24,000 nt of DNA from Reyranella sp. GTDB lineage: Bacteria; Pseudomonadota; Alphaproteobacteria; Reyranellales; Reyranellaceae. This document shows, piece after piece, positions 5,798-24,000 of this stretch. Each line of letters starts with the position of its first letter. Position 1 is the first letter of the stretch. The notes under the pieces were generated by a model, which ran no database searches, was not told the origin of the DNA, and saw only the letters and a list, made by a program, of their open reading frames with translations. The stretch lies in the NCBI RefSeq assembly GCF_004297265.1, contig NZ_SCUT01000030.1:95447-119446 (forward strand), read 5' to 3'. The translations under genes were made by a program, and so were the position numbers.

Positions 5798-5811
5798 GTT
5801 TGGCCATCGCG

Positions 5812-6897: not shown

Positions 6898-6898
6898 C

Positions 6899-7351: not shown

Positions 7352-7358
7352 CGGCGGA

Positions 7359-10340: not shown

Positions 10341-10363
10341 GACCGAGCCCTCATCGGATGACG

Positions 10364-10388
10364 AAGCCCGCCACGTGCGGGCTTTTTC
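10364..10388 (+). terminator. Rho-independent terminator after the dehydrogenase gene
   Basis: Stem aagcccgc (10364-10371) / gcgggctt (10377-10384) with a 5-nt loop, running into a T-run (10383-10387). Confidence 0.6.
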
Positions 10389-10560
10389 ATGCCCTCCCGG
10401 ACAAGCGCGGCGAAGCAAAATCGTCAGCCTCCCCATTCAGATGGGGAGGTGTCGACGTCCTACGTCGACGGAGGGGTCATGAGGCGGTCGTTCGTCCTTC
10501 GGCGCTCTCGGACATTGCAAGCTTGGCGGCTTGTAGCCAAGCCGCAGCCTGTCGCTCAAC

Positions 10561-10581
10561 GGGCCGAGCTTCGCTCGGCCC
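10561..10581 (-). terminator. GC-rich hairpin immediately after the 525-aa GT-like gene (putative terminator, no U-tract)
   Basis: Perfect 9-bp stem gggccgagc (10561-10569) / gctcggccc (10573-10581) with a 3-nt loop, 5 nt beyond the stop at 10587-10589. No T-run follows on the minus strand. Confidence 0.35.
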
Positions 10582-10586
10582 ATACG

Positions 10587-12164: not shown

Positions 12165-12189
12165 GGGACCTCGCGTGACGGGCGATCAG

Positions 12190-13323
12190 TCAGGAAGCGG
12201 AACGTGCCAGCTCGTTGCGGGCTGCAGCATACTCCACGAGCGTCGGGAGGCCGATGTCCACCACCTGCTGCCAATACGAACGGGCAGCGGACCGGTCCCT
12301 GCCATGGGCGGCGACGCCGAGCTGGAACAGCGCTTCGGCACGACGACCGGCGGTGTCGGCCCGGCCCAGCAGCTCTGATTCAGAAGCCGCTCCGGATTGC
12401 AAAGCCAGCAGCGACGCGACCCAGGAATCCCCGTCGACGATGCCGTCGGAGGACAGAGGCCGCCCAAGACGGAGCAACGCCGTGCGCAGGTACACCGTCC
12501 AGTAGGGATCACGCCTGTCGTTCCTCACCATCATCTCGAGATGGGGCAACGCGGCATCATAGTCGGCCAGGCGCAGGGCGACATAGGCGGCGGCGGAGGG
12601 ACGCCCTCCCAGCAGCCCGAGTTGCTGCCGCCAGTCGGCGTTCGCCTGGTCGATGTGCCCGAGCGCCATGTGCGCAATCCCCCGGGCATTCAAGGCTTCC
12701 GCGTCCTTCGCCCGCGCGGCGAGTACCCGGTCGAGGGCCTCGATGGCGGCCGCGTACTGGCCAAGCGCGGACAGGGCCTCGCCCTTCAGCGCGAGGGCGT
12801 CGAGCGAATTGGGATGAAGCTTCAGCGTGCGTTCATAGTCGGCCAGCGCAAGATCGGGCTGCCCGTCGGCAAGATAGGCATTCCCGCGCGCGAGGTGCGG
12901 CAGGGCAAATTTCTTGAGGGACTTCAGGACCCTCGTGTAGGCGACGATCTCGGCGGTGTGCGATCCCTGCTGGCGCAGGACGAAGTGCCGGTCGGGCGCC
13001 CCTGCCCGCCCCGCCTGCCTGAGCTTGCGGGCCTGCTCGTATCTCGCCGAAGCCGCAGCCGTGTCGCCGCTCATGTCGAGGGCCTCGCCTTCGGCCTCGA
13101 TCGCATCCGAAAAAGCAGGGGAGATTGCAATCGCCTGCCGAAGCAGACGGATGGCCGTCTCGGCGTCACCGGTGCGAAAAAGCGCGGTCGCCCGCAGGAA
13201 GAGATGTTCCGCTTCGCCGCCGTTGCTGCCCGCGACCCATTCGTCGGCCGATTGCCGTCGCCGCGTCCCCAGCACCTCTCGCAGGCTTCCCGACAAGCGC
13301 AACAACATCCCTGAGTTACTCAC
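12190..13323 (-). CDS. Tetratricopeptide-repeat (TPR) protein, soluble
   Basis: Repeated 34-aa TPR-like units (for example ARGNAYLADGQPDLALADYERTLKLHPNS, LALKGEALSALGQYAAAIEALDRVLAA, NARGIAHMALGHIDQANADW). GTG start at 13323 with an AGGAG RBS 7 nt upstream (alternative ATG at 13308). It ends 25 nt upstream of the 525-aa GT-like gene on the same strand. Confidence 0.8.
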   Translation of the reverse strand: MSNSGMLLRLSGSLREVLGTRRRQSADEWVAGSNGGEAEHLFLRATALFRTGDAETAIRLLRQAIAISPAFSDAIEAEGEALDMSGDTAAASARYEQARKLRQAGRAGAPDRHFVLRQQGSHTAEIVAYTRVLKSLKKFALPHLARGNAYLADGQPDLALADYERTLKLHPNSLDALALKGEALSALGQYAAAIEALDRVLAARAKDAEALNARGIAHMALGHIDQANADWRQQLGLLGGRPSAAAYVALRLADYDAALPHLEMMVRNDRRDPYWTVYLRTALLRLGRPLSSDGIVDGDSWVASLLALQSGAASESELLGRADTAGRRAEALFQLGVAAHGRDRSAARSYWQQVVDIGLPTLVEYAAARNELARSAS

Positions 13324-13524
13324 ACAAATGCTCCTGCACGGTACGGGACCGAATAAGCCGCCAAGACGGTGGGGGCCCTATTCTGCCCCGAGATCACACG
13401 CAGAACTGCCGGAAAGCTCCGATGACCCGCCAAAACCGCCATTTCGGCCTGTCCGCTAACTTAGCGTCGCGGGAACGTCAAGGCACCCGGATCGCCCACA
13501 AGGTGCGTCGCCCCGTCGGCGCAA

Positions 13525-13553
13525 TTGACGGAATTCTACCGCGCCGATAACAA
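13525..13553 (+). promoter_or_regulatory. Candidate sigma70-type promoter for the GT354 / nucleotidyltransferase-phosphatase operon
   Basis: TTGACG (13525-13530), 17-nt spacer, TAACAA (13548-13553), about 50 nt upstream of the ATG at 13602. The -10 element is weak. This is a pattern match only. Confidence 0.2.
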
Positions 13554-13601
13554 ACCGGCCCACATAACCGGCGATTCAGCCGTCCGAGCAGGTGTCAACG
13601 A

Positions 13602-14666
13602 ATGAATGCCCCGCCCTATCTCAGCATCGTTGGCTGGGCACGGAACGACGGCTACACGCCGAATTACGCAAAACGCCTCGAACACTCCATAGGCTTTCTC
13701 GTCCGCCAGCTCGACAGGCACAGGATCCCCTCCGAGGTGATCGTCGTGGAATGGAACCCGCCGCCGGGGAGTCCTCTTCTCGCAGACCAGATGAATGGTT
13801 TCCTCGGCGGCACATCCCACGCCAGCGTGCGGTTCATCGTCGTGCCCCCGCAATTCCATCGTGGCCCGCGAGGCTGGCAGAAGCGCGGGATGCACGTGAA
13901 CAACGCGGCGAATGTCGGCTTCCGGCGGGCTCGGGGGCGCTTCGTGACGCCCAAAGCCCTGGATACCTTCTATTCGGACAAGCTCGTCTCGACGATCGGC
14001 CGGCTCGATCTCGACGACCGGCGCGTCTATCGCTGTGACAGGCTCGATGCACGCATGGAGGCCGAGTCCTGGCTCGACCTTGCGGATGACGAACTCCTGG
14101 CCGCGCTGGCACGGCATGTCGTCCTCAGGAACGGGCGGCTGACCCACAGCATCGACTGGAAGATGCGGGACCTTCACACGAATGCCTGCGGTGACTTCAT
14201 CCTCATGTCCACGCCGCGGTGGCACGAAATCCGTGGGTACCAGAAGGATCCGACGGTCCTCTGTCTGGATTCGGACTCGATCGCGCTCCATGCCGCGGCC
14301 GCGCATGGAGCGTCCGAGGTCCACTGGCAGGAAGAGTGCATCTACAAGGTGGTGCATGGAAACACCCACGCGCAACGCGTGGCCACGATCTGGAAGGACT
14401 GGCAACTCAAACTTGACCACTACCTGATCTTGCGCCACCGGCGGGAGCTGGCGATGAATCTCCGGGTGTGGCTCAACTATCCCCGCCGGCGCGTCCGTGG
14501 CCTGGAGGAGATTCTGGCTCCCTCGATCGAACGCCACTTCGTCGCCAAAGCCGCTCGATACGCGAAGAACGACACCTCCCTCGTCACGAACGATGCCGAC
14601 TGGGGCTTGGCCCGCGAGTCACTGTCCGATCGGACCGTGGTTCGCGCCGCCTGGGACACGCCATGA
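13602..14666 (+). CDS. Atypical GT-A-like glycosyltransferase, distant paralog of the 525-aa protein
   Basis: 354 aa. By eye it aligns with the N-terminal half of the 10587..12164 product: LSIVGWARNDGYTPNY vs SVIIYGRNDTHGYNL; VIVVEWNPPPG vs ILFVDYNTPDD; CGDFILMSTPRWHEIRGY vs LGDFQAALREDMFAIHGF; LCLDSDSIALHAA vs LGWHCDSNLAARL. The stop overlaps the next start (ATGA at 14663-14666). Confidence 0.5.
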   Translation: MNAPPYLSIVGWARNDGYTPNYAKRLEHSIGFLVRQLDRHRIPSEVIVVEWNPPPGSPLLADQMNGFLGGTSHASVRFIVVPPQFHRGPRGWQKRGMHVNNAANVGFRRARGRFVTPKALDTFYSDKLVSTIGRLDLDDRRVYRCDRLDARMEAESWLDLADDELLAALARHVVLRNGRLTHSIDWKMRDLHTNACGDFILMSTPRWHEIRGYQKDPTVLCLDSDSIALHAAAAHGASEVHWQEECIYKVVHGNTHAQRVATIWKDWQLKLDHYLILRHRRELAMNLRVWLNYPRRRVRGLEEILAPSIERHFVAKAARYAKNDTSLVTNDADWGLARESLSDRTVVRAAWDTP

Positions 14667-15880
14667 CCGTCCGGCAGGTCGTTTGCCTGGTCGGCGGTCG
14701 CGGGACCCGCCTCGGCCCGCTCACCCAGAACATGCCGAAGCCTCTTCTGGAGGTCGGCGGCCGCCCCTTCCTCGACTATCTGATCGACGAGGCAAACCGC
14801 TTCGGCCTCCAGCGACTGCTGCTGCTGGCCGGGCATAGTGCCGGCGAAGTCGTGCGGCACTATGCCGGCAAGGTCGTCGGCGGACTGTCGATCGACGTGA
14901 TCGTCGAAACGGCTCCCGCGGGGACTGCCGGTGCTCTGGCCAATGCCGCGGCCTCGCTCGATCCGACCTTCTTCCTGGCCAACGGCGATTCCTTCTTCGG
15001 CTTCAACTGGCTGTCCCTCGTGCCGGCGCTGGACCGGGACGACTGGACGGTCCATCTCGCGCTCGCGCGCGGCGTCCGGGGAGGACGCTACGGTCGCCTG
15101 GAAACCCGGGGCAATCGCATATCGAGGTTCCTGCCCAAGGCGGATAGCGACCTGCCGATAAATGCCGGCGTGTATCTCGTCCGGCGCCGGATCCTCGACC
15201 GGATCCGGGAAATCCCCTGCTCGCTCGAGGACGATATTCTTCCGCCTCTCGCCTCGGAAGGCGAACTCCTGGGAACCGCCGCGGAGGGCACATTCATCGA
15301 CATCGGTGTTCCCGACGATTTTGCGCGTTCACAGCAGGCCATGCCGGCCTTCACGCGCCGGCCGGCGGCCTTCCTCGACCGGGATGGCGTGATCAATCAC
15401 GACGACAATTATGTGCATCGGCCGGAGCAGATACGCTGGATCGACGGCGCGAAAGAGGCGGTCCGCTGGCTGAACGATACCGGATACTATGTGTTCGCCG
15501 TCACGAACCAGGCCGGAGTCGCGCGCGGCTACTATGGCGAGGACGCCGTAAACTCGCTCCATGCCTGGATGCAGGGCCAACTGCAGGCCGCCGGGGCACA
15601 CGTGGATTGCTTCGAGTACTGCCCCTATCACCCCGAGGGTACCGTCGAGCGATATCGACGGGTTTCCGAGATGCGCAAGCCGGGACCGGGGATGATCCTC
15701 AAGATCAGAAGAGAGTGGAACATCGACTGGGATCGATCATTCATGATCGGCGATCGCGACATCGACATGCAGGCGGCGGAGGCGGCCGGTATCGCCGGCT
15801 ACCGGTTCCCCGGCGGCAACCTCCTGGATTTCGTCAGGATGCACGCGCCGGCGAAACGAAGAAATCCCTCTTCGCGTTGA
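14663..15880 (+). CDS. Bifunctional sugar-1-phosphate nucleotidyltransferase (HddC/ManC-like) / D,D-heptose 1,7-bisphosphate phosphatase (GmhB-like, HAD-IIIA)
   Basis: ATG at 14663 inside listed ORF 14468..15880. The N-terminal domain has GGRGTRLGPLTQNMPKPLLEV (NTP_transferase). The C-terminal domain, from about nt 15355, matches GmhB motif for motif: FLDRDGVIN, VTNQAGVARG, YCPYHPEG, RKPGPGM, IGDRDIDMQAAEAAG. Confidence 0.8.
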   Translation: MTVRQVVCLVGGRGTRLGPLTQNMPKPLLEVGGRPFLDYLIDEANRFGLQRLLLLAGHSAGEVVRHYAGKVVGGLSIDVIVETAPAGTAGALANAAASLDPTFFLANGDSFFGFNWLSLVPALDRDDWTVHLALARGVRGGRYGRLETRGNRISRFLPKADSDLPINAGVYLVRRRILDRIREIPCSLEDDILPPLASEGELLGTAAEGTFIDIGVPDDFARSQQAMPAFTRRPAAFLDRDGVINHDDNYVHRPEQIRWIDGAKEAVRWLNDTGYYVFAVTNQAGVARGYYGEDAVNSLHAWMQGQLQAAGAHVDCFEYCPYHPEGTVERYRRVSEMRKPGPGMILKIRREWNIDWDRSFMIGDRDIDMQAAEAAGIAGYRFPGGNLLDFVRMHAPAKRRNPSSR

Positions 15881-16808
15881 TTTCCAGCACTCTTTCCACG
15901 ATTTCGGGGGGCAAGGGTCCCTGATCGCTCGCTGCGGCGTTCGTCTCGGCTTCCGCCGGGTGCAGCACGCCCGGAATGACGCTCGAGACGCCGTCGAACG
16001 AAAGGCAGAAGCGCAAGGCGCTCAGCACGGCCTCCCGTCCCGGTGTCGCCGAGACCGCCGATATCAGATCGCGCGCTCCATCGATCCAGTTGTCGAGCTG
16101 GACGCGCGACCACGCCGCCCGATGGTCACCGGCGGCGAAGGCGGTCGACCGGTCGATCGTACCCGTGAGGAAGCCAAAGCAAAGCGGCGTTCGAGCGATG
16201 AACGCCGCCCCCTGCCGAATGACTTCCTGAAGCAGTCCCTCCGTGACGACGCGAACATCCATCATGTTGAAGTTGGCCTGAACGATGGGCGCGCGGGCGA
16301 CACGCAGCGCTTCGACCGCCCCTCCCGGATTCTTCGCGGAGACGCCCCAGGCCCGGATTTTCCCCTCGGCTAGCAACGAGGCGATCACCTCCCTGGTCTC
16401 GTCCGCGGACAGAACGTCCGAAGGAGGATTGTGGAGCTGCAGGACGTCGAGATAATCCGTCCCCAGGCGCTTCAGGCTGAGTTCTGTCGAGCGCCTGATG
16501 GCGGCGGCCGAGAAATCCGCCGGCTTCGTCCAATCGTCGTAGCCGGCCTTGGTGGCGATCACGGCCTTGTCCCGCCCGCCCGCCACCGCCCTGCCGATCA
16601 GGACCTCGCTATGCCCTGAACCGTAGGCACTGGACGTGTCGAAGAAAGTGATCCCGAGGTCCAGCGCCCGTCGAAGCGCCGCCAGGGACTGGGCGTCATC
16701 CGTATCGCCGTACGAGGTTGCACCGGCCGTTCTGCCACCGATCCCCCAGGCACCGAATCCGACCTCCGAGACCAGAATTCCGGTCTCGCCCAGCTTACGA
16801 TATTTCAT
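15834..16808 (-). CDS. Aldo/keto reductase
   Basis: Internal ATG at 16806-16808 gives MKYRKLGETGILVSEVGFGAW. The AKR tetrad context is present (DTSSAYG, IATK, LQLHNP). It starts 14 nt after the radical SAM stop with a GAGG RBS. The 3' end overlaps the convergent gene by 47 nt. Confidence 0.9.
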   Translation of the reverse strand: MKYRKLGETGILVSEVGFGAWGIGGRTAGATSYGDTDDAQSLAALRRALDLGITFFDTSSAYGSGHSEVLIGRAVAGGRDKAVIATKAGYDDWTKPADFSAAAIRRSTELSLKRLGTDYLDVLQLHNPPSDVLSADETREVIASLLAEGKIRAWGVSAKNPGGAVEALRVARAPIVQANFNMMDVRVVTEGLLQEVIRQGAAFIARTPLCFGFLTGTIDRSTAFAAGDHRAAWSRVQLDNWIDGARDLISAVSATPGREAVLSALRFCLSFDGVSSVIPGVLHPAEAETNAAASDQGPLPPEIVERVLEINAKRDFFVSPARAS

Positions 16809-16822
16809 CGCCTCGATCGCGG

Positions 16823-18853
16823 TCAGTAGTGTCCGGCCAGCTCGGGCGTGATCTCGACGGCGCGCGGCGAATAGAGATAGGCGCCCTTCTTGTTGCCCCA
16901 CCAGACGATCTCCCGGCACCACTTCTGGAAGTCGTCGTAGGGCCGGCTCGTGCGGTCGATTTCCACGACGATCGGCACCTTGCGCAGCAGCGCCGGCTCG
17001 CCGCCGCGCACCTTGTTCCAGTAGTCCAGCAGATCGTAGTTGAGCTTCACCTTCACATTGCCCCGGACGAAGGGCTGGTGGACCAACGCATGGTTCAGCT
17101 TAATGGCCTCTTCGACGACCTCGATGGGAAGGCCCGAGCTTCGCGCCTGCACGGTCTCGGACAGCAGCTCGCCGGCTTCGCGGTAGAAGTCGTCGAACTT
17201 CCCGTCGGCCGTCAGCCTGACGAAGATGTACTCGTCTGCCGGCCAGAAGATATTGAGGTATTCCTTCGAGAAGACGTACTCGGAACCACCCTGCTGGATG
17301 GACCGGGCCTCGCTCTCGAAAAAGTCGTTGATCCAGGCGATCGTCGGAAACCGCTTCGCGTCGGCGGCCATGAAGGCCTCGATCATGTCGCGGTAGGAAA
17401 TGCCGGATATACCGTGCGCCAGGATGAGCGGGATCTGGAACAGCTTGTCGAAATGCAGCAGCGCCGTCATCCAGCAGAAGGTGCGCGTGCGGCGCCAGTC
17501 GTCGAGCGGCGTCGCCGCGGTGGCGATGACCAGGTCCTGGACTTCCGGCACATCGTCGTCGAGCTCGATGCGCTCGCCGTGGATGTTGATGATCTTCGAT
17601 TCCACGGTAACCATGCCGTACTTGGCCTGGTAGGCGGGATCGCCCATCTCCGCGTTCGGCAGAATCGACAGGTTGTTGAACTGGATGCGGTTGTGCTGGC
17701 CGTTCTCCATCAGCTGATCGACACCGCGCACGAAGGACTCGTAGGTCTCACCGGGCAGGCCCAGGATCAGGTCCGAGTAGGTCTCGACCTTGTCGCGCGT
17801 GAATCGGCGCTGGAGTTCCATGTAGGTACCGAGCGAGATGTTGTCGCGCTTGATCGCCTCCAGCGTCGGCATGTCGACGCTCTGCATCGACAGGGCGACA
17901 CCCTTGTTCAGGCCGGCGTCGGACAGGATCTTCTGGGTCTCATAGGCCCGTTCCGTGGCGTTCTTGGTGTTCTGGACCGAGAGCGCCACCGGAAAGCCGG
18001 TCTTCGTCTTCACGTCGGCGACGTAGTTGGCGATGTCGACGTCGCGCTTCTGGATGCCGAAGTTGGCATCGCAGCAGAAGATGTACTCGATCTTCTTCTC
18101 GGCGAACCAATCGACCTCGCGATAGAGCCGCTCTTCACCGAACTTGGTGACCTTGCCGGCCGTGGCCGACCCCCAGTCGCAGAAGGTGCAGCGGAACGGG
18201 CAACCGCGGTTGGTTTCCCACAGGCCGATCCAGCTTTCCGTCCGGTTGGCCGCCATGATCTCGTCAAAGGCGCCTTCGAGGAAGGGCGAAGGAATTTCGT
18301 CGAGGTCGCGCACGCGGTCGAGATTCTTGGTGCGGACGAAGCTGCCGTCGGGCTTCACCATGCTGATGCCGGGAATGGCGTCCCAGGTGCTCCGATCGTG
18401 AAATGTCTCCAGGAGCTTCAGGAAAGTCCGCTCGCCCTCATTGTGGACGGCGAGATCGATCTGGCGATTGGCCCGCATGAAGGACTCGGGCTGGTCGGGT
18501 ACGTGCGGCCCACCGAAGATGATGACGATGCCCGGCTTCAACGCCTTCAGGCGACGGGCGATCTCGAGCGAGATCCGGCCGTTCCACACATAGGTGCTGA
18601 AGCCGACGATGTCGGCATCCTTCAGGGCCTCGACCGCATCGGCGATGCGCACGCGCTTGTAGAGCGGCGGCAGGAACCGGTAGAGCTCGGGCTCGGCTGC
18701 AAACTTCTTCACGTAGGTCTGCAGCAACGCGACCGAATATGGCAGATAGTTCTGGCCGGAGAAGGAGTTGTTGATCTGAACCAGGCCGACGACCAAGGCC
18801 CCCGCTCGGGGCGTGGCTTGCGTAGCGGCTTCTGCGGCGTGGGGCGTCGACAT
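16823..18853 (-). CDS. B12-binding-domain radical SAM enzyme (class B-like) with ~255-aa C-terminal extension
   Basis: CxxxCxxC cluster motif in WETNRGCPFRCTFCDWGS (C218/C222/C225 counted from the 18853 start). N-terminal Rossmann-like B12-binding-type domain (ALVVGLVQIN...ADIVGFSTYVW...IIFGGPHV). Start set at ATG 18853 because the 31 upstream codons of the listed ORF are rich in rare A/T-ending codons (tta, cta, caa, tct, aga). Confidence 0.85.
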   Translation of the reverse strand: MSTPHAAEAATQATPRAGALVVGLVQINNSFSGQNYLPYSVALLQTYVKKFAAEPELYRFLPPLYKRVRIADAVEALKDADIVGFSTYVWNGRISLEIARRLKALKPGIVIIFGGPHVPDQPESFMRANRQIDLAVHNEGERTFLKLLETFHDRSTWDAIPGISMVKPDGSFVRTKNLDRVRDLDEIPSPFLEGAFDEIMAANRTESWIGLWETNRGCPFRCTFCDWGSATAGKVTKFGEERLYREVDWFAEKKIEYIFCCDANFGIQKRDVDIANYVADVKTKTGFPVALSVQNTKNATERAYETQKILSDAGLNKGVALSMQSVDMPTLEAIKRDNISLGTYMELQRRFTRDKVETYSDLILGLPGETYESFVRGVDQLMENGQHNRIQFNNLSILPNAEMGDPAYQAKYGMVTVESKIINIHGERIELDDDVPEVQDLVIATAATPLDDWRRTRTFCWMTALLHFDKLFQIPLILAHGISGISYRDMIEAFMAADAKRFPTIAWINDFFESEARSIQQGGSEYVFSKEYLNIFWPADEYIFVRLTADGKFDDFYREAGELLSETVQARSSGLPIEVVEEAIKLNHALVHQPFVRGNVKVKLNYDLLDYWNKVRGGEPALLRKVPIVVEIDRTSRPYDDFQKWCREIVWWGNKKGAYLYSPRAVEITPELAGHY

Positions 18854-18982
18854 TCGCTGCGCTCTGTGTCCGGTCTTCTTGGCGGAAGACGAAGAGGTAG
18901 AGCGCCACTCTTCGCATTGCAATAGGATTGACTGCCATAATCCCATGGTTCAGCAGGGATTTTTCGGTGTCCTGAGGCGAAA

Positions 18983-19960
18983 ATGCAGTTTGCGGGCAAA
19001 AAGATTCTGATCACCGGCGGGGCCGGATTCCTGGGAACCAACCTGGCTCTGAAATTGACGGCCCTCGGCGCCAGACTGCGTCTCACGATGCATCGGAAGC
19101 CTCTTCAGGTCGCGTTCCCTGACGCCGAACTCGTGCAAGCCGACCTGCGACGCCCCGAGGATTGCGCCCGCGTCGTCGAAGGAATGGACGTCGTCTTCAT
19201 CTGCTCGGCACAGACTTCCGGCGCGGGCGTCATCCGCACCACTCCCCTGGTGCATGTCACGCCCAACGTGCTGATCAACAGCCTCCTCCTCGAAGCCGCC
19301 TACCAGGCGCAGGTGAAGAAGGTGTGCTTCATTTCGAGCGGCGCCGCCTATCCGGGGACGGGCGCGCGGCCCGTGACGGAAGCGGAGATGTTCAACGGCG
19401 ATCCGGAGGAGGTCTATTTTCCCGCCGGCTGGATGAAGCGCTACGCCGAGATCCTCTGCCGGACCTATGCCGAGAAGATCGCGAATCCGATGCCCACCGT
19501 GGTCATCCGCCCCTCCAACGTCTACGGCCCCTACGACAAGTTCGACTTTGCCGTGAGCCACGTCACGGCCGCGCTGGTGCGGCGGGTCGCCGAACGGCAG
19601 ACGCCGCTCCAAGTGTGGGGCACCGGCGACGACATCCGGGACCTGATCTACATCGACGATTTCGTCGAGGGCACCCTTGCCGCCGTCGCGACGGACCGGC
19701 CGTTCCTGGCCATCAACATCTGCGCCGGCCAAGGCTATGCCGTCCGGCAGGTCCTCGAAACGCTGCTGGACGTCGATGCATTCCACGACGCCCAAGTGAC
19801 GTTCGATGCCTCGAAACCCAGCACGGTTCCCGTGCGCCTGATGGACAATGGTCTCGCCCGCTCGCTGCTCGGCTTCGAGGCGAAGCTATCCCTGGCGGAA
19901 GGCCTCCGGCGAACCCTGGCCTGGTACAGGAGCGACCCGGCCAGCCCGGCGCGCCGCTAG
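18983..19960 (+). CDS. Extended SDR, GDP-L-fucose synthase (Fcl/GMER)-like, non-canonical active site
   Basis: ATG 18983 with a GAGG RBS. GGAGFLG Rossmann motif. Strong Fcl-like blocks: IRPSNVYGPYDKFDFAVSHVTAALVRR, QVWGTGDDIRDLIYIDD, FDASKPSTVPVRLMD. The YxxxK region reads PAGWMKRY, so Tyr is replaced. Confidence 0.85.
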   Translation: MQFAGKKILITGGAGFLGTNLALKLTALGARLRLTMHRKPLQVAFPDAELVQADLRRPEDCARVVEGMDVVFICSAQTSGAGVIRTTPLVHVTPNVLINSLLLEAAYQAQVKKVCFISSGAAYPGTGARPVTEAEMFNGDPEEVYFPAGWMKRYAEILCRTYAEKIANPMPTVVIRPSNVYGPYDKFDFAVSHVTAALVRRVAERQTPLQVWGTGDDIRDLIYIDDFVEGTLAAVATDRPFLAINICAGQGYAVRQVLETLLDVDAFHDAQVTFDASKPSTVPVRLMDNGLARSLLGFEAKLSLAEGLRRTLAWYRSDPASPARR

Positions 19961-21051
19961 AACGGGCCCCTGAAGCGCTTGTAGCCTTCGGTCATCGATC
20001 GCTCGACCGGAAGCTCGATGCCGTGGCGGCTGCCACAAACCTGCGTCAGGATTGCTTCCACGGTCTCGTGCTGGCTCGGGTAGTAGATGTCCTCGAGGCT
20101 CTTCGCCGTCGGGCAAGGTGCCGCGGCCATGCCGAGCATCGCTGGCGCCTGCCGCAACATCGCCGGATCCCGCATCATGACCTGACGGCAGACCTCGCCA
20201 GCCACGCCATACTCGAGCCAGGACGTATCAGCGATGACCAGACGGCCCGTCTTGCGGATGCTGCCGATCACCAGCTCCCAATCCGGGTGACTGATGGAGT
20301 TGAGATCGATGACTTCGACCTCGATGCCTGCCTTCTCGGCAACGTACTGGGCCGCGCGCAACGCCTCGAGCACCATCACCGACGTCGCCACGACCGTCAC
20401 GTCGCGCCCTTCGCGGGCCACGTAGCTGGTGAGCGGGATCGGCTTCGCCGGCGTCCCGGCGGAAACGGAGAAGTCCAGGTTGTAGAGGAGCCGGTGCTCG
20501 ATGCTCACCACCGGGCCCGGATGCCGGACGATGATCTGCGGATACATGTCCACGATCGCCTGGCTGGTCGACGGCATGACGACCGTCAGGCCGGGATAAT
20601 GGGCGAACGTCGCCTGCGGGCTCTGCGAATGCTGGGCGCCCTGCCCCCAGCTGCGCCCGACGACGAGGCGGATCAGCATGGGGCACGACATGATGCCGCC
20701 GAACATGTAGCGGTACTTCGAGGCCAGGTTGACGATCTGGTTCATCGCCAGGAACGAGAAGTCGGCGCGGATGTGCGTTGTGATCGGATAGTCGCCGACC
20801 AACGCCGCACCGATCGCCACGCCCGTCATGCCTTCTTCCATCAACGGAACGTCGAACACGCGCTGGGCGCCGTACTTCTGCGCGAGGCCGGTGGTCGAGC
20901 CGAAGATGCCCTTAAAGTCGTCGACGCCCTGGCCCATGATGAAGACGTTCGGATGGTCGGCCAGCGCCGAGTCCATCGTCTCCAGCAGCGCACCGGCATA
21001 GGACAGGACGCGCGTCTGTGTCGACGGACGCTCTTTCGAAGAGACGTTCAT
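19957..21051 (-). CDS. TPP-dependent 2-oxoacid dehydrogenase E1 component, beta subunit-like (Transket_pyr + Transketolase_C)
   Basis: 364 aa with FDVPLMEEGMTGVAIGAALVG (pyrimidine-binding domain) and a C-terminal transketolase-C-like domain (GRDVTVVATSVMVLEALRAA...IEVEVIDL). ATG at 21049-21051, 14 nt after the alpha-subunit stop. Confidence 0.85.
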   Translation of the reverse strand: MNVSSKERPSTQTRVLSYAGALLETMDSALADHPNVFIMGQGVDDFKGIFGSTTGLAQKYGAQRVFDVPLMEEGMTGVAIGAALVGDYPITTHIRADFSFLAMNQIVNLASKYRYMFGGIMSCPMLIRLVVGRSWGQGAQHSQSPQATFAHYPGLTVVMPSTSQAIVDMYPQIIVRHPGPVVSIEHRLLYNLDFSVSAGTPAKPIPLTSYVAREGRDVTVVATSVMVLEALRAAQYVAEKAGIEVEVIDLNSISHPDWELVIGSIRKTGRLVIADTSWLEYGVAGEVCRQVMMRDPAMLRQAPAMLGMAAAPCPTAKSLEDIYYPSQHETVEAILTQVCGSRHGIELPVERSMTEGYKRFRGPF

Positions 21052-21065: not shown

Positions 21066-21992
21066 CTAGATGATGTCGGTCAGCAGTTCATCGCGCCCCG
21101 GGAAGGGGCTTGTCTCGGCGAACTCGGCGGCTGCCGCGATCTCCCGATCGATCTCCGGCTTGAGCTCGGCAACGAGCTTCTCGTCGAGCAGCAGCGGATC
21201 GCGCGCCTTCCAGGCGTCGATGTCGGTCGCGTTGCGATACCCGAAATGGAAATCGTCGCCGACGCCGACATGCTCCTTGTAGCGCCCGGTTGCGATCTCG
21301 AGGACGAAGGGGCGGCCTGCCCGTACGACGGACAACGCATCCAGCGTGGCCTGCCGGATCGCCAGCATGTCCCAACCCTCGTCCAGCCGTCGCGCTTCGA
21401 TGCCGAAGGTCTTGGCGTGTTCGAGCAGATTGTAGGATTGCCGGGCGTTCTTGAAACTGTGCACGGCGAGCCCGTTATCCTCGCACAGGAACAGGACCGG
21501 CACCTTCATGAGTGCCGCGAAGTTCAGGCTCTCGTGGTAGACGCCCTCCTCGGTCGCACCGTCGCCGAACACCGCGACGGCCACGCGCGAGCTGCCCCGG
21601 CGCTTGAACGAGAGCGCCGCGCCGACGGCGTGGGGAATGGAACTGGCGACGACGGCGGAGGAGCCCATCAGCCCGACTTCCGGCGCCGACAGGTGCATCG
21701 AGCCAGCCTTTCCCTTGGAGACGCCGCCGACGCGGCCATAGAGTTCCGCGAACATCTTGGGCAGCGAGCCGCCCTTGGCGATGTAGAAGCCATGCGAGCG
21801 ATAGGTCGCAAACACGAGATCGTCGACGTTCAAGGCGTCGCAAACCCCGACGGCTACGGCTTCCTGGCCGATCGACAGATGAACGGGGCTTTGGATCCTG
21901 TCGGAGGGGTAGAGCTCGATGATGCGCTCTTCGACCAGCCTGATCGTCAGCGCTGTCCGGAAAAGTCGGCGGTAGCGCTCGTCGCTGTCCAT
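21066..21992 (-). CDS. TPP-dependent 2-oxoacid dehydrogenase E1 component, alpha subunit-like
   Basis: E1_dh-like: ELYPSDRIQSPVHLSIGQEA, YRSHG, and the TPP motif GDGATEEG-x-CEDNG (GDG...N spacing ~27). The listed ORF begins at a TTG (21995); the adjacent ATG at 21990-21992 is the more likely start. Confidence 0.85.
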   Translation of the reverse strand: MDSDERYRRLFRTALTIRLVEERIIELYPSDRIQSPVHLSIGQEAVAVGVCDALNVDDLVFATYRSHGFYIAKGGSLPKMFAELYGRVGGVSKGKAGSMHLSAPEVGLMGSSAVVASSIPHAVGAALSFKRRGSSRVAVAVFGDGATEEGVYHESLNFAALMKVPVLFLCEDNGLAVHSFKNARQSYNLLEHAKTFGIEARRLDEGWDMLAIRQATLDALSVVRAGRPFVLEIATGRYKEHVGVGDDFHFGYRNATDIDAWKARDPLLLDEKLVAELKPEIDREIAAAAEFAETSPFPGRDELLTDII

Positions 21993-22067
21993 CAAACTAC
22001 ATTCCCCAAGCCTGAAAGTCGGCCATTCCGGCCGCCGGTGCCGCCTCTCCTAGCGATACACCTGCAA

Positions 22068-23018
22068 CTATTCAACATTCCGGTTGGCCCGATACCAGGC
22101 GAGCAGTTCGGTCAGTCCGTCCTGAACCGACGTTGCCGGACGCCAACCCGTGGCTTCCATGAACCGGCGCCCAGAAACGCGCAGCATCGCAGGGCCCAGA
22201 TTCTGGCCTTCCAGTTCGACCTCCGCATCGCCAAAGCCGTCGGCGTCGAGCAGCGCCTCCAGGATCGACCGGACCGAGACTTCGTCCGGAGTTGCCACGT
22301 TGAAAGCCCGGAAGCCCCGTTCGTCGGGCCGGCAGACCGCTTTCACGGCCGCGGCCAGATCGCGGGCGTGGATCAGGTTTCGCGTCTGGGTACCATCTCC
22401 GGCCAGCCGGATCGGCCGGGTGCGCTCGACCACCCGTCGGACGAGCGACGGCAGGAAGTGGCCTGTTCGCGGGTCGAAGTCGTCGTGCGGACCGTAGACG
22501 AGGGTCGGTCTCAGGACGATGGCGGAGTCCAGCCAACCCAGCGTCCTGACATACCATTCGAGCTGTTTTTCCAGGTAGCGGTGCATCCACCCCACCCCGA
22601 ACCAGTGCCCCGGTGGATTGCCGGACTCGTATTGCTCCTCCTCCAGCAACTCCGTGGCGGGCGGATAGCCCGTGCAGGAGCTGACGAGCACGACATGCCT
22701 CGCGTCGCCTCGTGCCGCGGCTTCCAGGGCATTGGTGACGATACGCAGGTTGTCGAGTACCGACTCCACCGGCTCCTCCCGCAGCACGGCACTGGTGGAG
22801 ACCCGGCCGGCGCACAGGACGACCGTGTTGCAGCCGGCGAAAGCGCGCGACGCCTGGGCCCGATCGTTGAAATCGCACTGGACCCACTGGATGCCTTCGG
22901 CGGCAAAGGGCCGGCGCGACCTGTAGGTCGCAACCACGGGCTCTCCCGTCGGGCCAGCGAGCACCTCGACGACGTGCCTTCCGATCAGGCCCGTCGCACC
23001 CGCCACTGCGATCGTCAT
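22068..23018 (-). CDS. Extended SDR, Fcl/GMER-like paralog, non-canonical active site
   Basis: MTIAVAGATGLIG Rossmann motif at ATG 23016-23018 (GAAGGA upstream; alternative ATG at 23039). Fcl-like blocks VSSCTGYP, LRPTLVYGPHDDFDPRTGHFLPSLVRR, GDGTQTRNLIHARD. The YxxxK region reads GVGWMHRY, so Tyr and Lys are both replaced. Confidence 0.8.
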   Translation of the reverse strand: MTIAVAGATGLIGRHVVEVLAGPTGEPVVATYRSRRPFAAEGIQWVQCDFNDRAQASRAFAGCNTVVLCAGRVSTSAVLREEPVESVLDNLRIVTNALEAAARGDARHVVLVSSCTGYPPATELLEEEQYESGNPPGHWFGVGWMHRYLEKQLEWYVRTLGWLDSAIVLRPTLVYGPHDDFDPRTGHFLPSLVRRVVERTRPIRLAGDGTQTRNLIHARDLAAAVKAVCRPDERGFRAFNVATPDEVSVRSILEALLDADGFGDAEVELEGQNLGPAMLRVSGRRFMEATGWRPATSVQDGLTELLAWYRANRNVE

Positions 23019-23150
23019 CGTCCTTCGGTCTCCCCTCATCTGCTTGCCGCGTCGACCGTAACCGCCGGCCGGCAGATTGTCGCATAGTTCGGTCGACCGG
23101 GCCGTTGGACGTGCTAAGGAACGCGCGCAAACGGACGAGTTGACGGGAAA

Positions 23151-24000
23151 ATGGGAATGTCGCCGCAGCAGCGCCTTGGACAGAAAGAATTCGAAGTCGC
23201 GGTCGGGATCCCGGCGGGAAGCCTGGACGAGCGCACCAAGGCGCTCCTGGAGAAGACCCCGCTGCTGTTTTCAGCCCTCGACGACCAAGCCCAGGCGGCC
23301 GCGCGCGCGAACGTGGCCGAGGACATCGACCGCGGTTTCACGGTCGTCGGCGAGCATCGCGCCTCCATCTGGCGCGACGCGTGGCAAGATCACCTGGACG
23401 ATTTCATCGGGTCCGGACACGCGCTGGAAGCGCTCAATCCGCGGTTCGTGGGCGGCACCGTCCTCCTGCGCTGGCAGGGCGCCTATATCGAGGGTGTCAC
23501 CGAGCGCTTCGAGCTGGCCTTCCTCGAGATCTTCCGCGACTGGCTGTTCCGGACCTATCTTGCGGATGCGTCGCATCTCTACGAGTTCGGCAGCGGCAGC
23601 GCCTTCAACGTCGCAGCCTATGCGAAACTCTATCCACAGACCTCGATCACCGCGCTCGACTGGGCACCCGCTGCGGTGAAGATCGCCGACCTGCTGGGCG
23701 AGCGGCATGGCATGAAGATCTCCGGCCGGCGGTTCGATTTCTTCGCCCCGGAAAGCGGTTTCGAGTTCGCTCCTAACAGCAGCGTGCTGACCATGTGTGC
23801 GCTGGAACAGGTGGGCGACAGGTTCCAGCCGTTCCTGGATTTCCTCCTCGCAAAGCGCCCGCAGCGAGTGGTGCATGTGGAGCCCATGCTGGAACTCTAC
23901 GATCCGGATCTGCCGCACGACGCCCTGGCCATCCGGTATCACCAGCAGCGCAAGTACCTCAGCGGGCTCCTGCCTCATCTGCGCTCGCTCGAGAAGGCCG
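23151..24000 (+). CDS. Class I SAM-dependent methyltransferase (putative), 3' end beyond window; not in the supplied ORF track
   Basis: My own translation from ATG 23151 (in-frame stop TAA at 23115) is open to nt 24000: MGMSPQQRLGQKEFEVAVGIP...HLYEFGSGSAFNVAAYAKLYPQTSITALDWAP...VLTMCALEQV.... It has a motif I-like EFGSGSAFN, G/C-rich third codon positions and ordinary amino-acid composition. The listed competing ORFs (23077..23679 +, 23271..23978 -) are Arg/Ser/Pro-rich or antisense. Confidence 0.6.
   Translation, partial: MGMSPQQRLGQKEFEVAVGIPAGSLDERTKALLEKTPLLFSALDDQAQAAARANVAEDIDRGFTVVGEHRASIWRDAWQDHLDDFIGSGHALEALNPRFVGGTVLLRWQGAYIEGVTERFELAFLEIFRDWLFRTYLADASHLYEFGSGSAFNVAAYAKLYPQTSITALDWAPAAVKIADLLGERHGMKISGRRFDFFAPESGFEFAPNSSVLTMCALEQVGDRFQPFLDFLLAKRPQRVVHVEPMLELYDPDLPHDALAIRYHQQRKYLSGLLPHLRSLEKA

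Follow-up and report, generated by a model that had tools for sequence, protein, structure and literature searches.

What reaction is carried out by a cobalamin-binding radical SAM protein encoded within a sugar locus of the alphaproteobacterium Reyranella sp.? The window, by which we mean the whole stretch of 24,000 nucleotides that was analysed, encodes a 676-aa protein of this kind (designated rSAM here) next to an aldo/keto reductase (AKR) (Table 1). No curated family covers rSAM. A preliminary description, made from the sequence alone, had proposed that the pair performs a radical C-methylation or rearrangement of a sugar nucleotide followed by ketoreduction.

Table 1. Features of the rSAM locus (positions refer to the window)
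Feature	Position	Strand	Size or residues	Basis or remark
Protein without annotation	13602..14666	plus	354 aa	Stop overlaps start of NTP-transferase/HAD gene
Sugar-1-phosphate nucleotidyltransferase fused to GmhB-like HAD-IIIA phosphatase	14663..15880	plus		Pfam NTP_transferase and HAD
AKR	15834..16808	minus	324 aa	PF00248, E 2.4e-50; probable ketoreductase partner
rSAM gene, class B, TokK/CysS structural type	16823..18853	minus	676 aa	Pfam, PDB sequence search, AF2 model, GC3
C-terminal domain, mostly helical	16826..17593	minus	residues ~421-676	Homologous to TokK substrate-binding third domain
Radical SAM partial TIM-barrel core	17594..18241	minus	residues ~205-420	PF04055; alternating strand/helix pattern in model
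CxxxCxxC motif (C218/C222/C225), radical SAM [4Fe-4S] cluster	18179..18202	minus		Cys listing, invariant columns, TokK alignment
N-terminal Rossmann-type cobalamin-binding domain	18269..18796	minus	residues ~20-195	PF02310; HMMER alignment to TokK
Divergent intergenic region, rSAM/SDR1	18854..18982		129 nt	Promoters presumed here
GDP-fucose-synthase-like SDR (SDR1, epimerase/reductase)	18983..19960	plus	325 aa	PF01370; NCBIfam Fcl E 4.7e-40, under cutoff
ThDP-dependent E1 beta-like subunit (Transket_pyr and Transketolase_C)	19957..21051	minus	364 aa	Pfam/NCBIfam
ThDP-dependent E1 alpha-like subunit (E1_dh)	21066..21995	minus	309 aa	Pfam/NCBIfam
Second GDP-fucose-synthase-like SDR	22068..23039	minus	323 aa	Pfam/NCBIfam; PDB match
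Class I methyltransferase-like ORF, runs off window end	23151..24000	plus		Translation; conserved cassette member

Domain organization of rSAM

The rSAM reading frame opens with an ATG at 18853 on the minus strand, and an alternative in-frame ATG upstream at 18946 would extend the product to 707 aa. As relatives are 654-690 aa long and a homologue at 93% identity has 676 aa, the shorter form was preferred. GC3 was 0.88, compared with 0.59 in a plus-strand ORF overlapping rSAM, which indicates that rSAM is the real gene. Pfam matches were obtained to B12-binding (PF02310; residues 69-147, 48.8 bits, cutoff 32.1) and Radical_SAM (PF04055; residues 214-376, 54.2 bits, cutoff 29.5), and the domain-family search gave no match to SPASM or twitch families. 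Cys residues are found at 218, 222, 225, 260, 261, 460 and 646. The sole CxxxCxxC motif lies at 218-225, and the columns of C218, C222 and C225 are invariant among relatives. Of these Cys, only C460 and C646 fall within residues 421-676, and both positions vary across the orthogroup. The coordinates and anatomy in the preliminary description thus hold, including the B12-binding domain, the single cluster motif, the two Cys in the C-terminal part (257 aa) and the assignment to class B without an auxiliary cluster.

The AF2 model of rSAM had a pLDDT of 84.9 and a pTM of 0.85, with pLDDT mostly 85-98 over the C-terminal domain, and no membrane segment was predicted in it. The stop codon of rSAM (TGA, 16825-16823) and the AKR start (ATG, 16808-16806) are separated by 14 nt, as had been described. 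A ribosome binding site had also been assigned to the AKR, but the only Shine-Dalgarno-like element is a GAGG ending 2 nt before the ATG, and with such a short spacing it argues only weakly for one.

Relationship to TokK, ThnK, CysS and KedN5

Among characterised enzymes, rSAM is most closely related to TokK/ThnK, CysS and KedN5, which methylate sequentially, and not to the GenK/GenD1-type enzymes initially taken as a reference. TokK is a methylase of carbapenem antibiotics. The model superposed on TokK over its full length (~690 columns) with a TM of 0.82-0.86, and on CysS with 0.71-0.77, whereas OxsB, TsrM and AprD4 gave values of at most ~0.6. A PDB sequence search retrieved TokK with an E of 9e-99 and CysS with 1.5e-59, and a region of S. 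cattleya encoding ThnK was 37% identical to rSAM. When TokK was compared with a profile of the rSAM family (E 3.8e-164), the match extended to TokK residue 609, and family members aligned through to residues ~660-676. The C-terminal extension, regarded at first as an oddity, is thus, judging from the model and the alignments, the known substrate-binding third domain of TokK, ThnK and CysS, which is common to a very large family. In NCBIfam, the subfamily assignment that had been called for gave the KedN5 methylase family as the top match, at 292 bits against a curated cutoff of 700, a score at which function cannot be transferred by membership. Other matches were BchE (37 bits), ApyD (75 bits) and rSAM_ocin_1 (67 bits), the latter two confined to the N-terminal domains and far under their cutoffs.

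TokK Trp76 lies under the corrin ring and, together with Trp215, is common only to ThnK and CysS among characterised methylases (10.1101/2021.07.10.451909). These residues correspond to W90 (in the motif YVWN) and W227 (in D226-W227, following CxxxCxxC) of rSAM. W90 was invariant in both family alignments, A1 and A2, and W227 was likewise invariant. On the other hand, the carboxylate-binding Arg280 of TokK is replaced by Ser292, suggesting that the substrate of rSAM differs from that of TokK. We infer that rSAM belongs with the three-domain, cobalamin-dependent radical SAM methyltransferases of the TokK/ThnK/CysS type.

Gene neighbourhoods in the window and in relatives

Members of the rSAM orthogroup (54-70% identity) occur in Alphaproteobacteria, Burkholderiales, Cyanobacteria, Sericytochromatia and Planctomycetota, with more distant relatives in SAR11 and Methanoperedens. 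The step had been called uncommon; this holds for published work, but across genomes the orthogroup is widespread. All 14 orthogroup contexts were sugar loci with a reductase gene directly downstream of rSAM, encoding an AKR in eight and a GDP-fucose-synthase-like SDR in six. The sugar locus of the window is confirmed as well. A lack of sugar-nucleotide genes around rSAM in other genomes had been named beforehand as grounds for rejecting the proposal, and such genes accompanied rSAM throughout. A ThDP E1alpha/beta or split-transketolase pair was present within 10 kb of rSAM in 10 of the 14, an NTP-transferase in 9 and a GHMP kinase in 8, and NDP-heptose-type activation genes were present in most. 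In the SAR11 locus (L007), the genes for E1 alpha, E1 beta, rSAM, AKR and SDR are contiguous on one strand, with ORFs overlapping or abutting. These results support a functional coupling of rSAM to the reductase inside a nucleotide-sugar pathway. The preliminary description had recognized the rSAM-AKR pair, but missed the larger cassette comprising E1alpha/beta, the Fcl-like SDRs, the class I methyltransferase and the NTP-transferase/HAD fusion. The sugar-building gene set with this pair is conserved from soil bacteria to SAR11 in the ocean and to archaea, and probably makes a methylated, branched surface sugar.

Both SDRs of the window had GDP-fucose synthases as their closest matches. For SDR1 the best PDB matches were GDP-fucose synthase and GDP-mannose 3,5-epimerase, and its orthologues flank rSAM in five relatives' loci (L001, L081-L083 and L088). 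The E1 beta-like gene is kept with rSAM in L001, L007, L086, L087 and L089-L091, and neither an E2 nor an E3 gene accompanies the E1 pair in the window. The methyltransferase-like ORF was 45% identical to an Azospirillum p2 methyltransferase and 40% and 28% identical to those of L082 and L007. The best PDB match of the AKR, probably the ketoreductase partner of rSAM, was the AKR11-type GSP69 (1PZ1).

The NTP-transferase/HAD gene is convergent with the AKR gene, the 3' ends overlapping by 47 nt, and the same fusion adjoins rSAM in L001, L081, L082 and L014. It scored 153 bits with GmhB (cutoff 178) and 81 bits with HddC (cutoff 300), both under the cutoffs, so that a heptose is probable rather than proven. 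GmhA-like and HddA-like genes are absent from the window and were found only in relatives (e.g. L001). NUDIX and GMD genes were likewise seen in relatives. The 354-aa protein gave no Pfam or NCBIfam match; within Reyranellaceae it accompanies the cassette, and it has homologues in L001 and L049. No sigma-70 consensus was found within 18854-18982.

Proposed reaction of rSAM and its alternatives

Taking into account the fold, motifs, homology and gene co-occurrence, we consider it fairly probable that rSAM performs a radical C-methylation of a keto sugar derived from a GDP-activated heptose, and that ketoreduction follows. By homology with TokK, cob(I)alamin would be bound base-off over Trp90 and methylated by one SAM. 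A second SAM would be cleaved at the C218/C222/C225 [4Fe-4S] cluster, and the 5'-deoxyadenosyl radical formed would take hydrogen from an unactivated substrate carbon. The methyl group would then pass from methylcobalamin to the substrate radical, within a channel formed by the C-terminal domain. The presumed substrate is a keto-sugar intermediate of the GDP-activated heptose-type pathway encoded around the gene, to which the NTP-transferase/GmhB-like fusion and the Fcl-like SDRs would contribute, with GmhA-like and HddA-like proteins, a GMD-like dehydratase and an RmlC-like epimerase added in relatives. The remaining ketone would be reduced by the adjacent AKR, or by the Fcl-like SDR that replaces it in other genomes. 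It counts against a firm assignment to heptose that an octose-type route such as that of lincomycin (LmbN/P/K/O) employs the same four enzyme types.

AviB1/B2-type E1 pairs install acetyl branches on sugars; for paulomycin, an E1alpha/beta pair has been put forward as the source of the C4' acetyl branch, and reduction of this branch by the AKR Pau7 has been shown (PMC4753412). By analogy, we tentatively favour a route in which E1alpha/beta would place an acetyl branch from pyruvate on the sugar, as with AviB1/B2 and Pau11/12, rSAM would methylate the carbon alpha to the branch ketone once or several times, as in TokK, and the AKR would, like Pau7, finally reduce the acyl group so that a hydroxyalkyl branch results. 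This route is weakened by four contexts with no ThDP enzyme within reach (L004, L083, L084 and L085), although L004 is a short contig of 12.6 kb. Equally tentative is methylation of a carbon of the heptose skeleton, such as C6 or C7.

It is unlikely that an O-methyl sugar is made first by a conventional O-methyltransferase and that rSAM then methylates its methyl carbon, extending it to an O-ethyl, O-isopropyl or similar group. CysS and KedN5 do work on methoxy groups, and class I methyltransferase genes occur in the window (23151 onward) and in L088, L082 and L007, a TylF-type O-methyltransferase gene directly upstream of rSAM in the Methanoperedens locus L002, and Methyltransf_24-type genes in L002, L082 and L089. 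However, the invariable adjacency of a ketoreductase-type gene and the ThDP enzyme would be left unexplained, and rSAM is nearer to TokK/ThnK, which C-methylate beside a carbonyl, than to CysS. To our knowledge, O-ethyl and O-isopropyl sugars are not known from glycans.

Class B also takes in the non-methylases OxsB and BchE, and a ThDP-dependent C-C-forming enzyme would suit the building of unusual carbon skeletons. The 5'-deoxyadenosyl radical might therefore drive a rearrangement, ring contraction or carbocyclisation of a keto sugar, with cobalamin in another role, and a carbocyclic or bicyclic higher sugar could result and then be reduced. We give this little credence, as the TM with OxsB was ~0.45-0.48, far below that with TokK, the BchE match was weak, every characterised enzyme of the TokK/CysS/KedN5 clade is a methylase, and the two signature Trp residues are invariant in the orthogroup.

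Methylation might also occur after the nucleotide-sugar stage, on a lipid-linked or polymerised glycan, or on a non-sugar metabolite of the locus. Glycosyltransferase genes are frequent neighbours (L082, L084-L087 and L088), and in TokK and CysS the C-terminal domain binds large, carrier-linked (pantetheinylated) substrates. We judge this improbable: the genes that embed rSAM, often with translational coupling, are those of soluble nucleotide-sugar tailoring enzymes (SDR, AKR, RmlC-like and GMD-like) rather than of glycosyltransferases or transport, and the model lacks a membrane segment.

A RiPP or peptide methylase merely adjoining a sugar locus is highly improbable: although RiPP methylases are numerous in class B and ApyD and rSAM_ocin_1 were matched, the window contains no YcaO, protease or transporter gene and no precursor-sized ORF, for which the 129-nt divergent region is the sole intergenic space, and the uniformly sugar-related contexts largely refute it, in agreement with the earlier argument against a RiPP maturase here. 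A homologue 45% identical to rSAM (L005) does lie in a RiPP-like cluster, with YcaO, ThcOx and an S8 peptidase as its neighbours, indicating that the wider family also extends beyond sugars.

Domain structure and family of the radical SAM protein

The window has a G+C content of 65%. A comparison of third-position GC favoured the ORF of the radical SAM protein (rSAM, GC3 0.88) over an overlapping ORF on the forward strand, and the ORF of the aldo/keto reductase (AKR, GC3 0.78) was likewise favoured over the opposite strand. Homologues of rSAM range from 654 to 690 aa, the closest having 676 aa, and an alternative in-frame ATG would add 31 non-conserved residues. The nearest homologues (82-93% identity) carry the names Reyranella, Reyranellales and Enhydrobacter. 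The Pfam domains found in rSAM were B12-binding (PF02310, residues 69-147, 48.8 bits against a cutoff of 32.1) and Radical_SAM (PF04055, residues 214-376, 54.2 bits against 29.5), with no further domain and no SPASM match. Cys residues are present at positions 218, 222, 225, 260, 261, 460 and 646; the sole CxxxCxxC motif spans residues 218-225, and C218, C222 and C225 were invariant in the homologue alignments. Judged by its B12-binding Rossmann domain and CxxxCxxC core, rSAM is a class B (cobalamin-dependent) enzyme, as the preliminary description had it, and is predicted to use cobalamin. Since the final 257 residues contain only two Cys, neither conserved among homologues, rSAM lacks a SPASM/twitch auxiliary cluster, again in agreement with the earlier description; the Cys positions and the homologue alignment together rule out such a cluster in the C-terminal part.

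The AKR ATG lies 14 nt downstream of the rSAM stop codon, a spacing given correctly in the preliminary description, which had also assigned the AKR gene its own ribosome-binding site. The only Shine-Dalgarno-like element before the gene is a GAGG just 2 nt from the ATG, which argues weakly for an independent site. On the other side of rSAM, the 129-nt divergent region leaves no room for a precursor gene, and inspection of the ORFs around rSAM, this region included, revealed no precursor-sized ORF, as had been stated. Rfam and tRNA scans of the 24-kb window returned nothing, hence no B12 riboswitch, and a promoter and terminator scan around the rSAM-AKR pair gave nothing informative. AKR matched PF00248 (E 2.4e-50, 171.7 bits, model positions 1-290 of 291). 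Its nearest PDB entry is the AKR11-type GSP69 (1PZ1), and the translation and the 1PZ1 alignment showed the Asp-Tyr-Lys-His tetrad (D in FFDTS, Y in SAYG, K in IATKAG and H in LQLHNP). Two convergent gene pairs overlap at their 3' ends, by 47 nt and 4 nt, so that no terminator is possible between the genes of each pair and opposing transcription would collide.

Coordinates of features in the window and in homologue loci of other genomes (L numbers)
Locus	Feature	Position	Strand	Remark
Window	Housekeeping genes	1-9000
Window	FkbM-like methyltransferase	~5902-6897
Window	Start of glycan region	~9030
Window	525-aa protein	10587-12164	-	unannotated
Window	354-aa protein	13602-14666	+	unannotated
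Window	Nucleotidyltransferase/HAD-IIIA fusion	14663-15880
Window	Fusion/AKR overlap	15834-15880		47 nt
Window	AKR	15834-16808	-
Window	rSAM	16823-18853	-	676 aa counted from ATG 18853
Window	rSAM stop codon	16825-16823	-
Window	Alternative rSAM ATG	18946	-
Window	Divergent intergenic region	18854-18982		129 nt
Window	GDP-fucose-synthase-like SDR	18983-19960	+
Window	SDR/E1beta overlap	19957-19960		4 nt
Window	E1beta-like subunit	19957-21051	-
Window	E1alpha-like subunit	21066-21995	-
Window	Second SDR	22068-23039	-
Window	Class I methyltransferase-like ORF	23151-24000	+	runs past window end
L001	Paralogous E1alpha/beta pairs	4005-5979, 6865-8878
L086	Paralogous E1alpha/beta pairs	6443-8474, 14575-16367
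L082	Four-gene transketolase block	3992-7353
L002	Four-gene transketolase block	4531-6942		SDR in fourth position
L088	Four-gene transketolase block	7655-11065
L005	S8 peptidase, rSAM homologue, YcaO, ThcOx/nitroreductase	7669-15626
L007	Sites in the Pelagibacteraceae genome	4006-5307, 9977-12004, 13895-16332, 17888-18985

No curated NCBIfam family covers rSAM, all scores lying below the cutoffs. The best match was the KedN5 family of methylcobalamin-dependent C-methyltransferases (NF033712), with 291.9 bits against a curated cutoff of 700 (model positions 53-401 of 624, rSAM residues 70-419). HpnJ (94 bits against 578), HpnR (35 against 650) and BchE (37 against 481) were rejected, and PhpK, ApyD and other models scored far under their cutoffs; the assignment to BchE or a hopanoid methylase that the preliminary description had named as refuting its reading does not apply.

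Searches against PDB sequences retrieved TokK (7KDX, E 9e-99 over residues 35-486) and CysS (9N1B, E 1.5e-59). A profile built from 33 diverse homologues matched TokK with E 3.8e-164 over residues 19-609 of 681, an alignment that reaches well inside the third domain of TokK. An AlphaFold2 model of rSAM based on 58 homologues had a mean pLDDT of 84.9 and a pTM of 0.85, with the C-terminal part mostly at 85-98. The model superposed on TokK over its full length (TM 0.82-0.86, ~690 aligned columns), including the Cbl domain, and gave TM 0.71-0.77 with CysS; values with OxsB, TsrM, MgmA and AprD4 were only 0.38-0.61. TokK's C-terminal domain has been called unique and forms the substrate channel together with the Cbl and radical SAM domains (10.1101/2021.07.10.451909). 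An exhaustive representative search with rSAM gave 1,832 clusters at E<1e-30, and because many of these align to residues ~660-676, the C-terminal domain is family-wide. The preliminary description had noted a long, Cys-poor C-terminal extension. It is indeed Cys-poor; according to the model, the 'extension' is the known TokK-type third domain and no anomaly. Among its basic residues, R457, K470, R634 and K655 are invariant.

The likeness to TokK and ThnK, the sequential methylases of carbapenem C6 (7KDX, 7KDY), covers the entire layout, in which a Cbl Rossmann domain and the core of the radical SAM type are followed by a C-terminal substrate domain that is large and helical, as well as the size (676 aa against 681 aa for TokK). 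Full-length identity to TokK is only ~29-30%, placing rSAM in a separate orthogroup; in a plasmid search, the Streptantibioticus cattleyicolor region that encodes ThnK matched with 37% identity over residues 31-497. Two Trp residues highlighted in TokK, namely Trp76, located beneath the corrin, and Trp215, an active-site residue right after the third Cys, are common to TokK, ThnK and CysS and absent from TsrM, Fom3, PhpK and GenK (10.1101/2021.07.10.451909). Their counterparts in rSAM, according to the HMMER alignment, are W90 (STYVWN) and W227 (FCDWGS), both invariant in the two homologue alignments. By contrast, Arg280 of TokK, which binds the carbapenam carboxylate, is replaced by Ser292, a residue invariant in the orthogroup; the substrate should therefore differ from that of TokK, and a carbapenam methylase is ruled out. 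Tyr652 of TokK falls outside the sequence alignment. The genomic settings also differ, as rSAM lies among nucleotide-sugar and surface-glycan genes and TokK/ThnK in a beta-lactam cluster, and the rSAM locus shows no sign of a pantetheinyl-carrier logic.

CysS (cystobactamid; 9N1B-D) and KedN5 depend on methylcobalamin for a C-methylation by which small alkyl groups are lengthened. CysS shares the fold of rSAM, whereas the KedN5 alignment is limited to the N-terminal and core domains, and the substrates of both are aromatic methoxy groups of carrier-bound intermediates in antibiotic pathways. To our knowledge, cobalamin-dependent methylases of the TokK/ThnK/CysS/KedN5 type have come to date from antibiotic and natural-product pathways only. 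GenK and GenD1 are class B enzymes that methylate an unactivated sugar carbon, and Fom3 acts on a cytidylylated substrate. The preliminary description had drawn a functional analogy with the GenK/GenD1 type; the top matches were TokK, CysS and KedN5, in libraries without GenK or GenD1 entries, and neither these two nor Fom3 came closest in any search. All three belong to secondary-metabolite pathways rather than cell-surface glycan loci.

A conserved cassette in nucleotide-sugar loci

A profile search identified orthogroup members with 54-70% identity under the source names Kovacikia (Cyanobacteria), Sericytochromatia, Gemmataceae, Planctomycetota, Burkholderiales and Rhodospirillales. Further homologues, from Candidatus Methanoperedens (49%), Pelagibacteraceae (43%) and Ilumatobacter (40%), emerged when species-representative genomes were scanned. 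Homologues of rSAM number about 5,000 in all. We compared 14 orthogroup contexts, namely the window, L001, L004 and L081-L091. All were sugar loci with a reductase next to rSAM, consistent with the sugar pathway and the coupling to reduction proposed at the outset; co-occurrence with sugar-nucleotide genes, on which that reading depended, thus held in other genomes. The rSAM-AKR pair is part of a larger conserved module and does not stand alone.

Neighbours of rSAM in the 14 orthogroup contexts
Neighbour	Contexts	Loci
Reductase directly downstream	14/14
AKR downstream	8/14	window, L001, L082, L084, L087, L088, L089, L090
GDP-fucose-synthase-like SDR downstream	6/14	L004, L081, L083, L085, L086, L091
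ThDP two-subunit enzyme within 10 kb (E1alpha/E1beta, fused E1 or split transketolase)	10/14	window, L001, L081, L082, L086, L087, L088, L089, L090, L091
GHMP kinase	8/14	L001, L081, L082, L086, L087, L089, L090, L091
Sugar-phosphate nucleotidyltransferase	9/14	window, L001, L081, L082, L084, L085, L087, L089, L090
Nucleotidyltransferase fused to HAD-IIIA phosphatase		window, L001, L081, L082

Genes for SIS (GmhA-like) proteins, GMD-like dehydratases, RmlC-like epimerases, NUDIX proteins, DegT aminotransferases, methyltransferases and glycosyltransferases recur nearby. In a SAR11 single-cell genome (L007), E1a, E1b, rSAM, AKR and SDR genes follow one another on a single strand, their ORFs overlapping or abutting, close to SIS, GHMP kinase, two GMD-like, RmlC and NTP-transferase genes. 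In Methanoperedens (L002), rSAM is flanked by a TylF-type O-methyltransferase and a short-chain dehydrogenase, with GHMP kinase, NTP-transferase, DegT, SIS and GmhB-like genes downstream and a split transketolase upstream. The sister Reyranellaceae locus L001, whose rSAM is 85% identical by tblastn, has RmlC-like, GHMP kinase and GMD-like genes past a second E1alpha/beta pair. Of the GmhA/HddA/GmhB/HddC set, the window holds only the HddC-like/GmhB-like fusion (NCBIfam: GmhB 153 bits against a cutoff of 178, HddC 81 against 300); it ends at 24000, short of the gene positions in L001, and probably just before its own RmlC-like, GHMP kinase and GMD-like copies. SIS/GmhA-like and/or GHMP-kinase/HddA-like genes accompany rSAM in L001 (GHMP kinase only), L002, L007, L081, L082, L087 and L089-L091.

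Both SDRs of the window are closest in the PDB to GDP-fucose synthases and GDP-mannose 3,5-epimerase. They also match entries deposited as GDP-L-fucose synthase (7M13, 7CXT and 7ANC), which we take to be Campylobacter heptose C4 reductases. Taken together with the NUDIX and GMD genes of the relatives, these matches indicate GDP-linked sugars. The GDP-heptose and GDP-6-deoxyheptose pathways of the Campylobacter jejuni capsule share with the orthogroup loci the GmhA/HddA/GmhB/HddC-type set, a GMD-like dehydratase, an RmlC-like epimerase and Fcl-like C4 reductases, and differ in having no radical SAM protein, ThDP enzyme or AKR.

The E1alpha/beta proteins of the window matched PF00676, and PF02779 with PF02780, and scored below the PDH equivalog cutoffs (244 bits against 394 and 230 against 321). 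No lipoyl/E2 or E3 gene was found in the 24-kb window, and the pair is thus a stand-alone E1alpha/beta in a nucleotide-sugar locus. The cassette is also present on plasmid p2 of the cultured strain Azospirillum sp. TSA2s (rSAM identity 57.9%), so that the hypothesis is directly testable. There, the products of the two genes, WP_136701551.1 and WP_136701550.1, are annotated merely as 'radical SAM protein' and 'aldo/keto reductase', and the genes are flanked by GDP-mannose 4,6-dehydratase, split transketolase, methyltransferase, NUDIX hydrolase and glycosyltransferase genes.

Proposed reaction and alternatives

Based on its homology with TokK, rSAM would most likely methylate an unactivated sp3 carbon by means of a 5'-deoxyadenosyl radical and methylcobalamin. 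That a reductase gene constantly follows speaks for a keto compound as its substrate or product, and the neighbouring genes speak for a keto sugar of the heptose type, activated with GDP, as this compound. The GDP-octose route of lincomycin uses the same four activation enzyme types, and 'heptose' is therefore probable rather than proven.

Some evidence would also accommodate other chemistry. Methyltransferases are conserved in the cassette, and rSAM could conceivably extend the O-alkyl group of a sugar that carries O-methyl, in the manner of CysS and KedN5, although we consider this improbable. We attach equally little weight to a non-methylating class B reaction, against which stand the poor structural match to OxsB and the low BchE score, and to action on a lipid-linked or polymerised glycan in place of a soluble substrate. 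Modification of a RiPP, as might be imagined from a 45%-identical relative in a YcaO cluster (L005), is largely excluded at this locus, where no precursor ORF was found and all 14 orthogroup contexts are sugar loci.

As for the methylated position, a precedent for the remaining enzymes is found in paulomycin biosynthesis, in which Pau11/Pau12, an E1alpha/beta pair homologous to AviB1/AviB2, have been proposed to add a C4' acetyl branch, and the AKR Pau7 has been shown to reduce the acetyl group to a hydroxyethyl branch (PMC4753412). The E1alpha/beta pair and AKR of the window would fit this scheme with rSAM inserted between them. The analogy lies in the gene set, a stand-alone E1alpha/E1beta without E2/E3 plus an AKR in a deoxysugar pathway; Pau7 is AKR5-type whereas AKR is nearest to the AKR11-type GSP69, and the AviB/Pau pathways have no radical SAM protein and use dTDP-type 2,6-dideoxyhexoses of actinomycete antibiotics. 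Following the scheme, rSAM would methylate the acetyl branch carbon, possibly repeatedly, ahead of reduction by AKR, to give a hydroxypropyl-type or larger branch. The first target of TokK, carbapenam C6, adjoins the beta-lactam carbonyl, and on this account we tentatively favour methylation of the branch. As an alternative, rSAM would methylate a carbon of the sugar skeleton (C6 or C7), in analogy with GenK, a possibility that we regard as equally open and hold just as tentatively. No ThDP enzyme was found nearby in L004 (a short 12.6-kb contig), L083, L084 and L085, which argues that the branch model is not universal; in some loci split transketolases may instead supply a ketose-phosphate precursor.

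Erwiniose and caryophyllose were considered as specific products, on the basis of a heptose plus a C-methyl group and a C2 branch, and rejected, as enzyme type and nucleotide differ: they are accounted for by single-chain ThDP enzymes of the YerE type, for which the donors are longer 2-keto acids and the acceptor is a CDP-3,6-dideoxy-4-keto-hexose (PMC9306805).

Our search of the full-text literature found nothing linking a class B or cobalamin-dependent radical SAM enzyme with heptose, O-antigen or capsule pathways; a paper on C. jejuni HS:19, considered as a candidate link, concerns an anSME-like enzyme. The enzyme type is known, while the orthogroup, the cassette and the presumed substrate class are undescribed: a TokK-type orthogroup distributed across several phyla is fixed in cell-surface nucleotide-sugar cassettes, with a reductase always next to it and a ThDP-dependent C-C-forming enzyme usually present. 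If this reading of rSAM holds, the cassette would be a new sugar-tailoring module and predict that LPS, EPS or S-layer glycans contain higher sugars, C-methylated or branched, that are yet to be discovered. It would also mean that abundant environmental microbes, a SAR11 lineage among them, require B12 for the structure of their envelope, and provide enzymologists with a TokK-family member acting on a soluble substrate (an NDP-sugar). A more speculative proposal, which we consider rather unlikely in this full form, is that the cassette makes an undescribed class of surface sugar in which a GDP-heptose-derived keto sugar receives a ThDP-dependent acyl branch, one or more radical methylations and reduction of the ketone. 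This would place alkyl- or hydroxyalkyl-branched sugars of C10 or larger in the envelopes of Reyranella, Azospirillum, cyanobacteria, Sericytochromatia, Planctomycetota, SAR11 and Methanoperedens. Cell-surface glycan structure would then depend partly on vitamin B12, and 'sequential methylase' chemistry would shift from antibiotic pathways to primary envelope biogenesis.

Variants of the cassette and more distant relatives

A four-gene block of a Methyltransf_24-like gene, the N- and C-terminal halves of a transketolase and a class I methyltransferase stands in for the E1alpha/beta pair in L082 (Sericytochromatia), L002 and L088. The first gene of the Azospirillum block is labelled 'crotonobetainyl-CoA--carnitine CoA-transferase', an apparent mis-annotation. 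The class I methyltransferase-like ORF at the end of the window, which has no confident family match (BioC, E 0.024), is 45% identical to a protein of Azospirillum p2, 40% to one of L082 and 28% to one of SAR11 L007, and in all three the gene adjoins a split transketolase. Two paralogous E1alpha/beta pairs with ~40% mutual identity were found in L001 and in L086, the latter also carrying two TokK-like rSAMs together with Rieske and PhyH genes, a hint that branching and methylation may occur in two rounds, and that oxygenation takes part.

Outside the orthogroup, the L003 homologue (49%) lies in a sugar locus of a different kind, whose genes include a CMP-type cytidylyltransferase, a TylC3-like C-methyltransferase, FkbM and a DHDPS-like gene. 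The L005 homologue (Alphaproteobacteria MAG AP_29) lies between an S8 peptidase gene and YcaO and ThcOx/nitroreductase genes, a RiPP-like azoline setting which argues that peptide pathways, too, have recruited members of the wider family. Searching L003, L005 and L006 by tblastn with the window proteins revealed no cassette partners.

SAR11 is regarded as having little use for cobalamin. The island in L007 (Pelagibacteraceae SAG AH-321-K15) contains three radical SAM genes, two with B12-binding domains, and a TonB-dependent receptor next to a DUF6580 protein, which suggests a surface-glycan trait that depends on B12 and has uptake genes of its own. The genome scan also found Clostridia paralogues in tandem arrays. 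In the Clostridia/Oscillospiraceae MAGs of L009, L012, L013 and L014, two or three tandem TokK-like rSAMs are each ~30% identical to that of the window, followed in L014 by an NTP-transferase/HAD fusion and a GHMP kinase; these suggest several successive radical methylations of an activated sugar in Firmicutes. A second Reyranella locus (L049, NZ_JAFKJN010000022.1) encodes a distant TokK-like rSAM (29% identity) beside a paralogue of the 354-aa protein and an E1alpha-like gene, and the combination of rSAM and ThDP enzyme in a sugar locus may thus occur twice per Reyranella genome.

Returning to the window, the genes of the 354-aa and 525-aa proteins have GC3 values of 0.80 and 0.87, and neither protein had a Pfam or NCBIfam match. 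Their N-termini are weakly alike (SIVGWARND... and FSVIIYGRND..., E 0.011) and recall a GT-A-like start. The 354-aa protein is found again next to the L001 cassette and next to the distant class B rSAM in L049, and a 37%-identical homologue of the 525-aa protein adjoins a TokK-like rSAM in a Desulfuromonadales MAG (L017). Both may be novel glycosyltransferases. The glycan region begins with a UDP-glucose/GDP-mannose dehydrogenase. The housekeeping part before it contains a purN fragment, ndk, ABC-F, MFS and cyclase-family genes, holC and pepA, and an FkbM-like methyltransferase gene lies apart from the glycan region.
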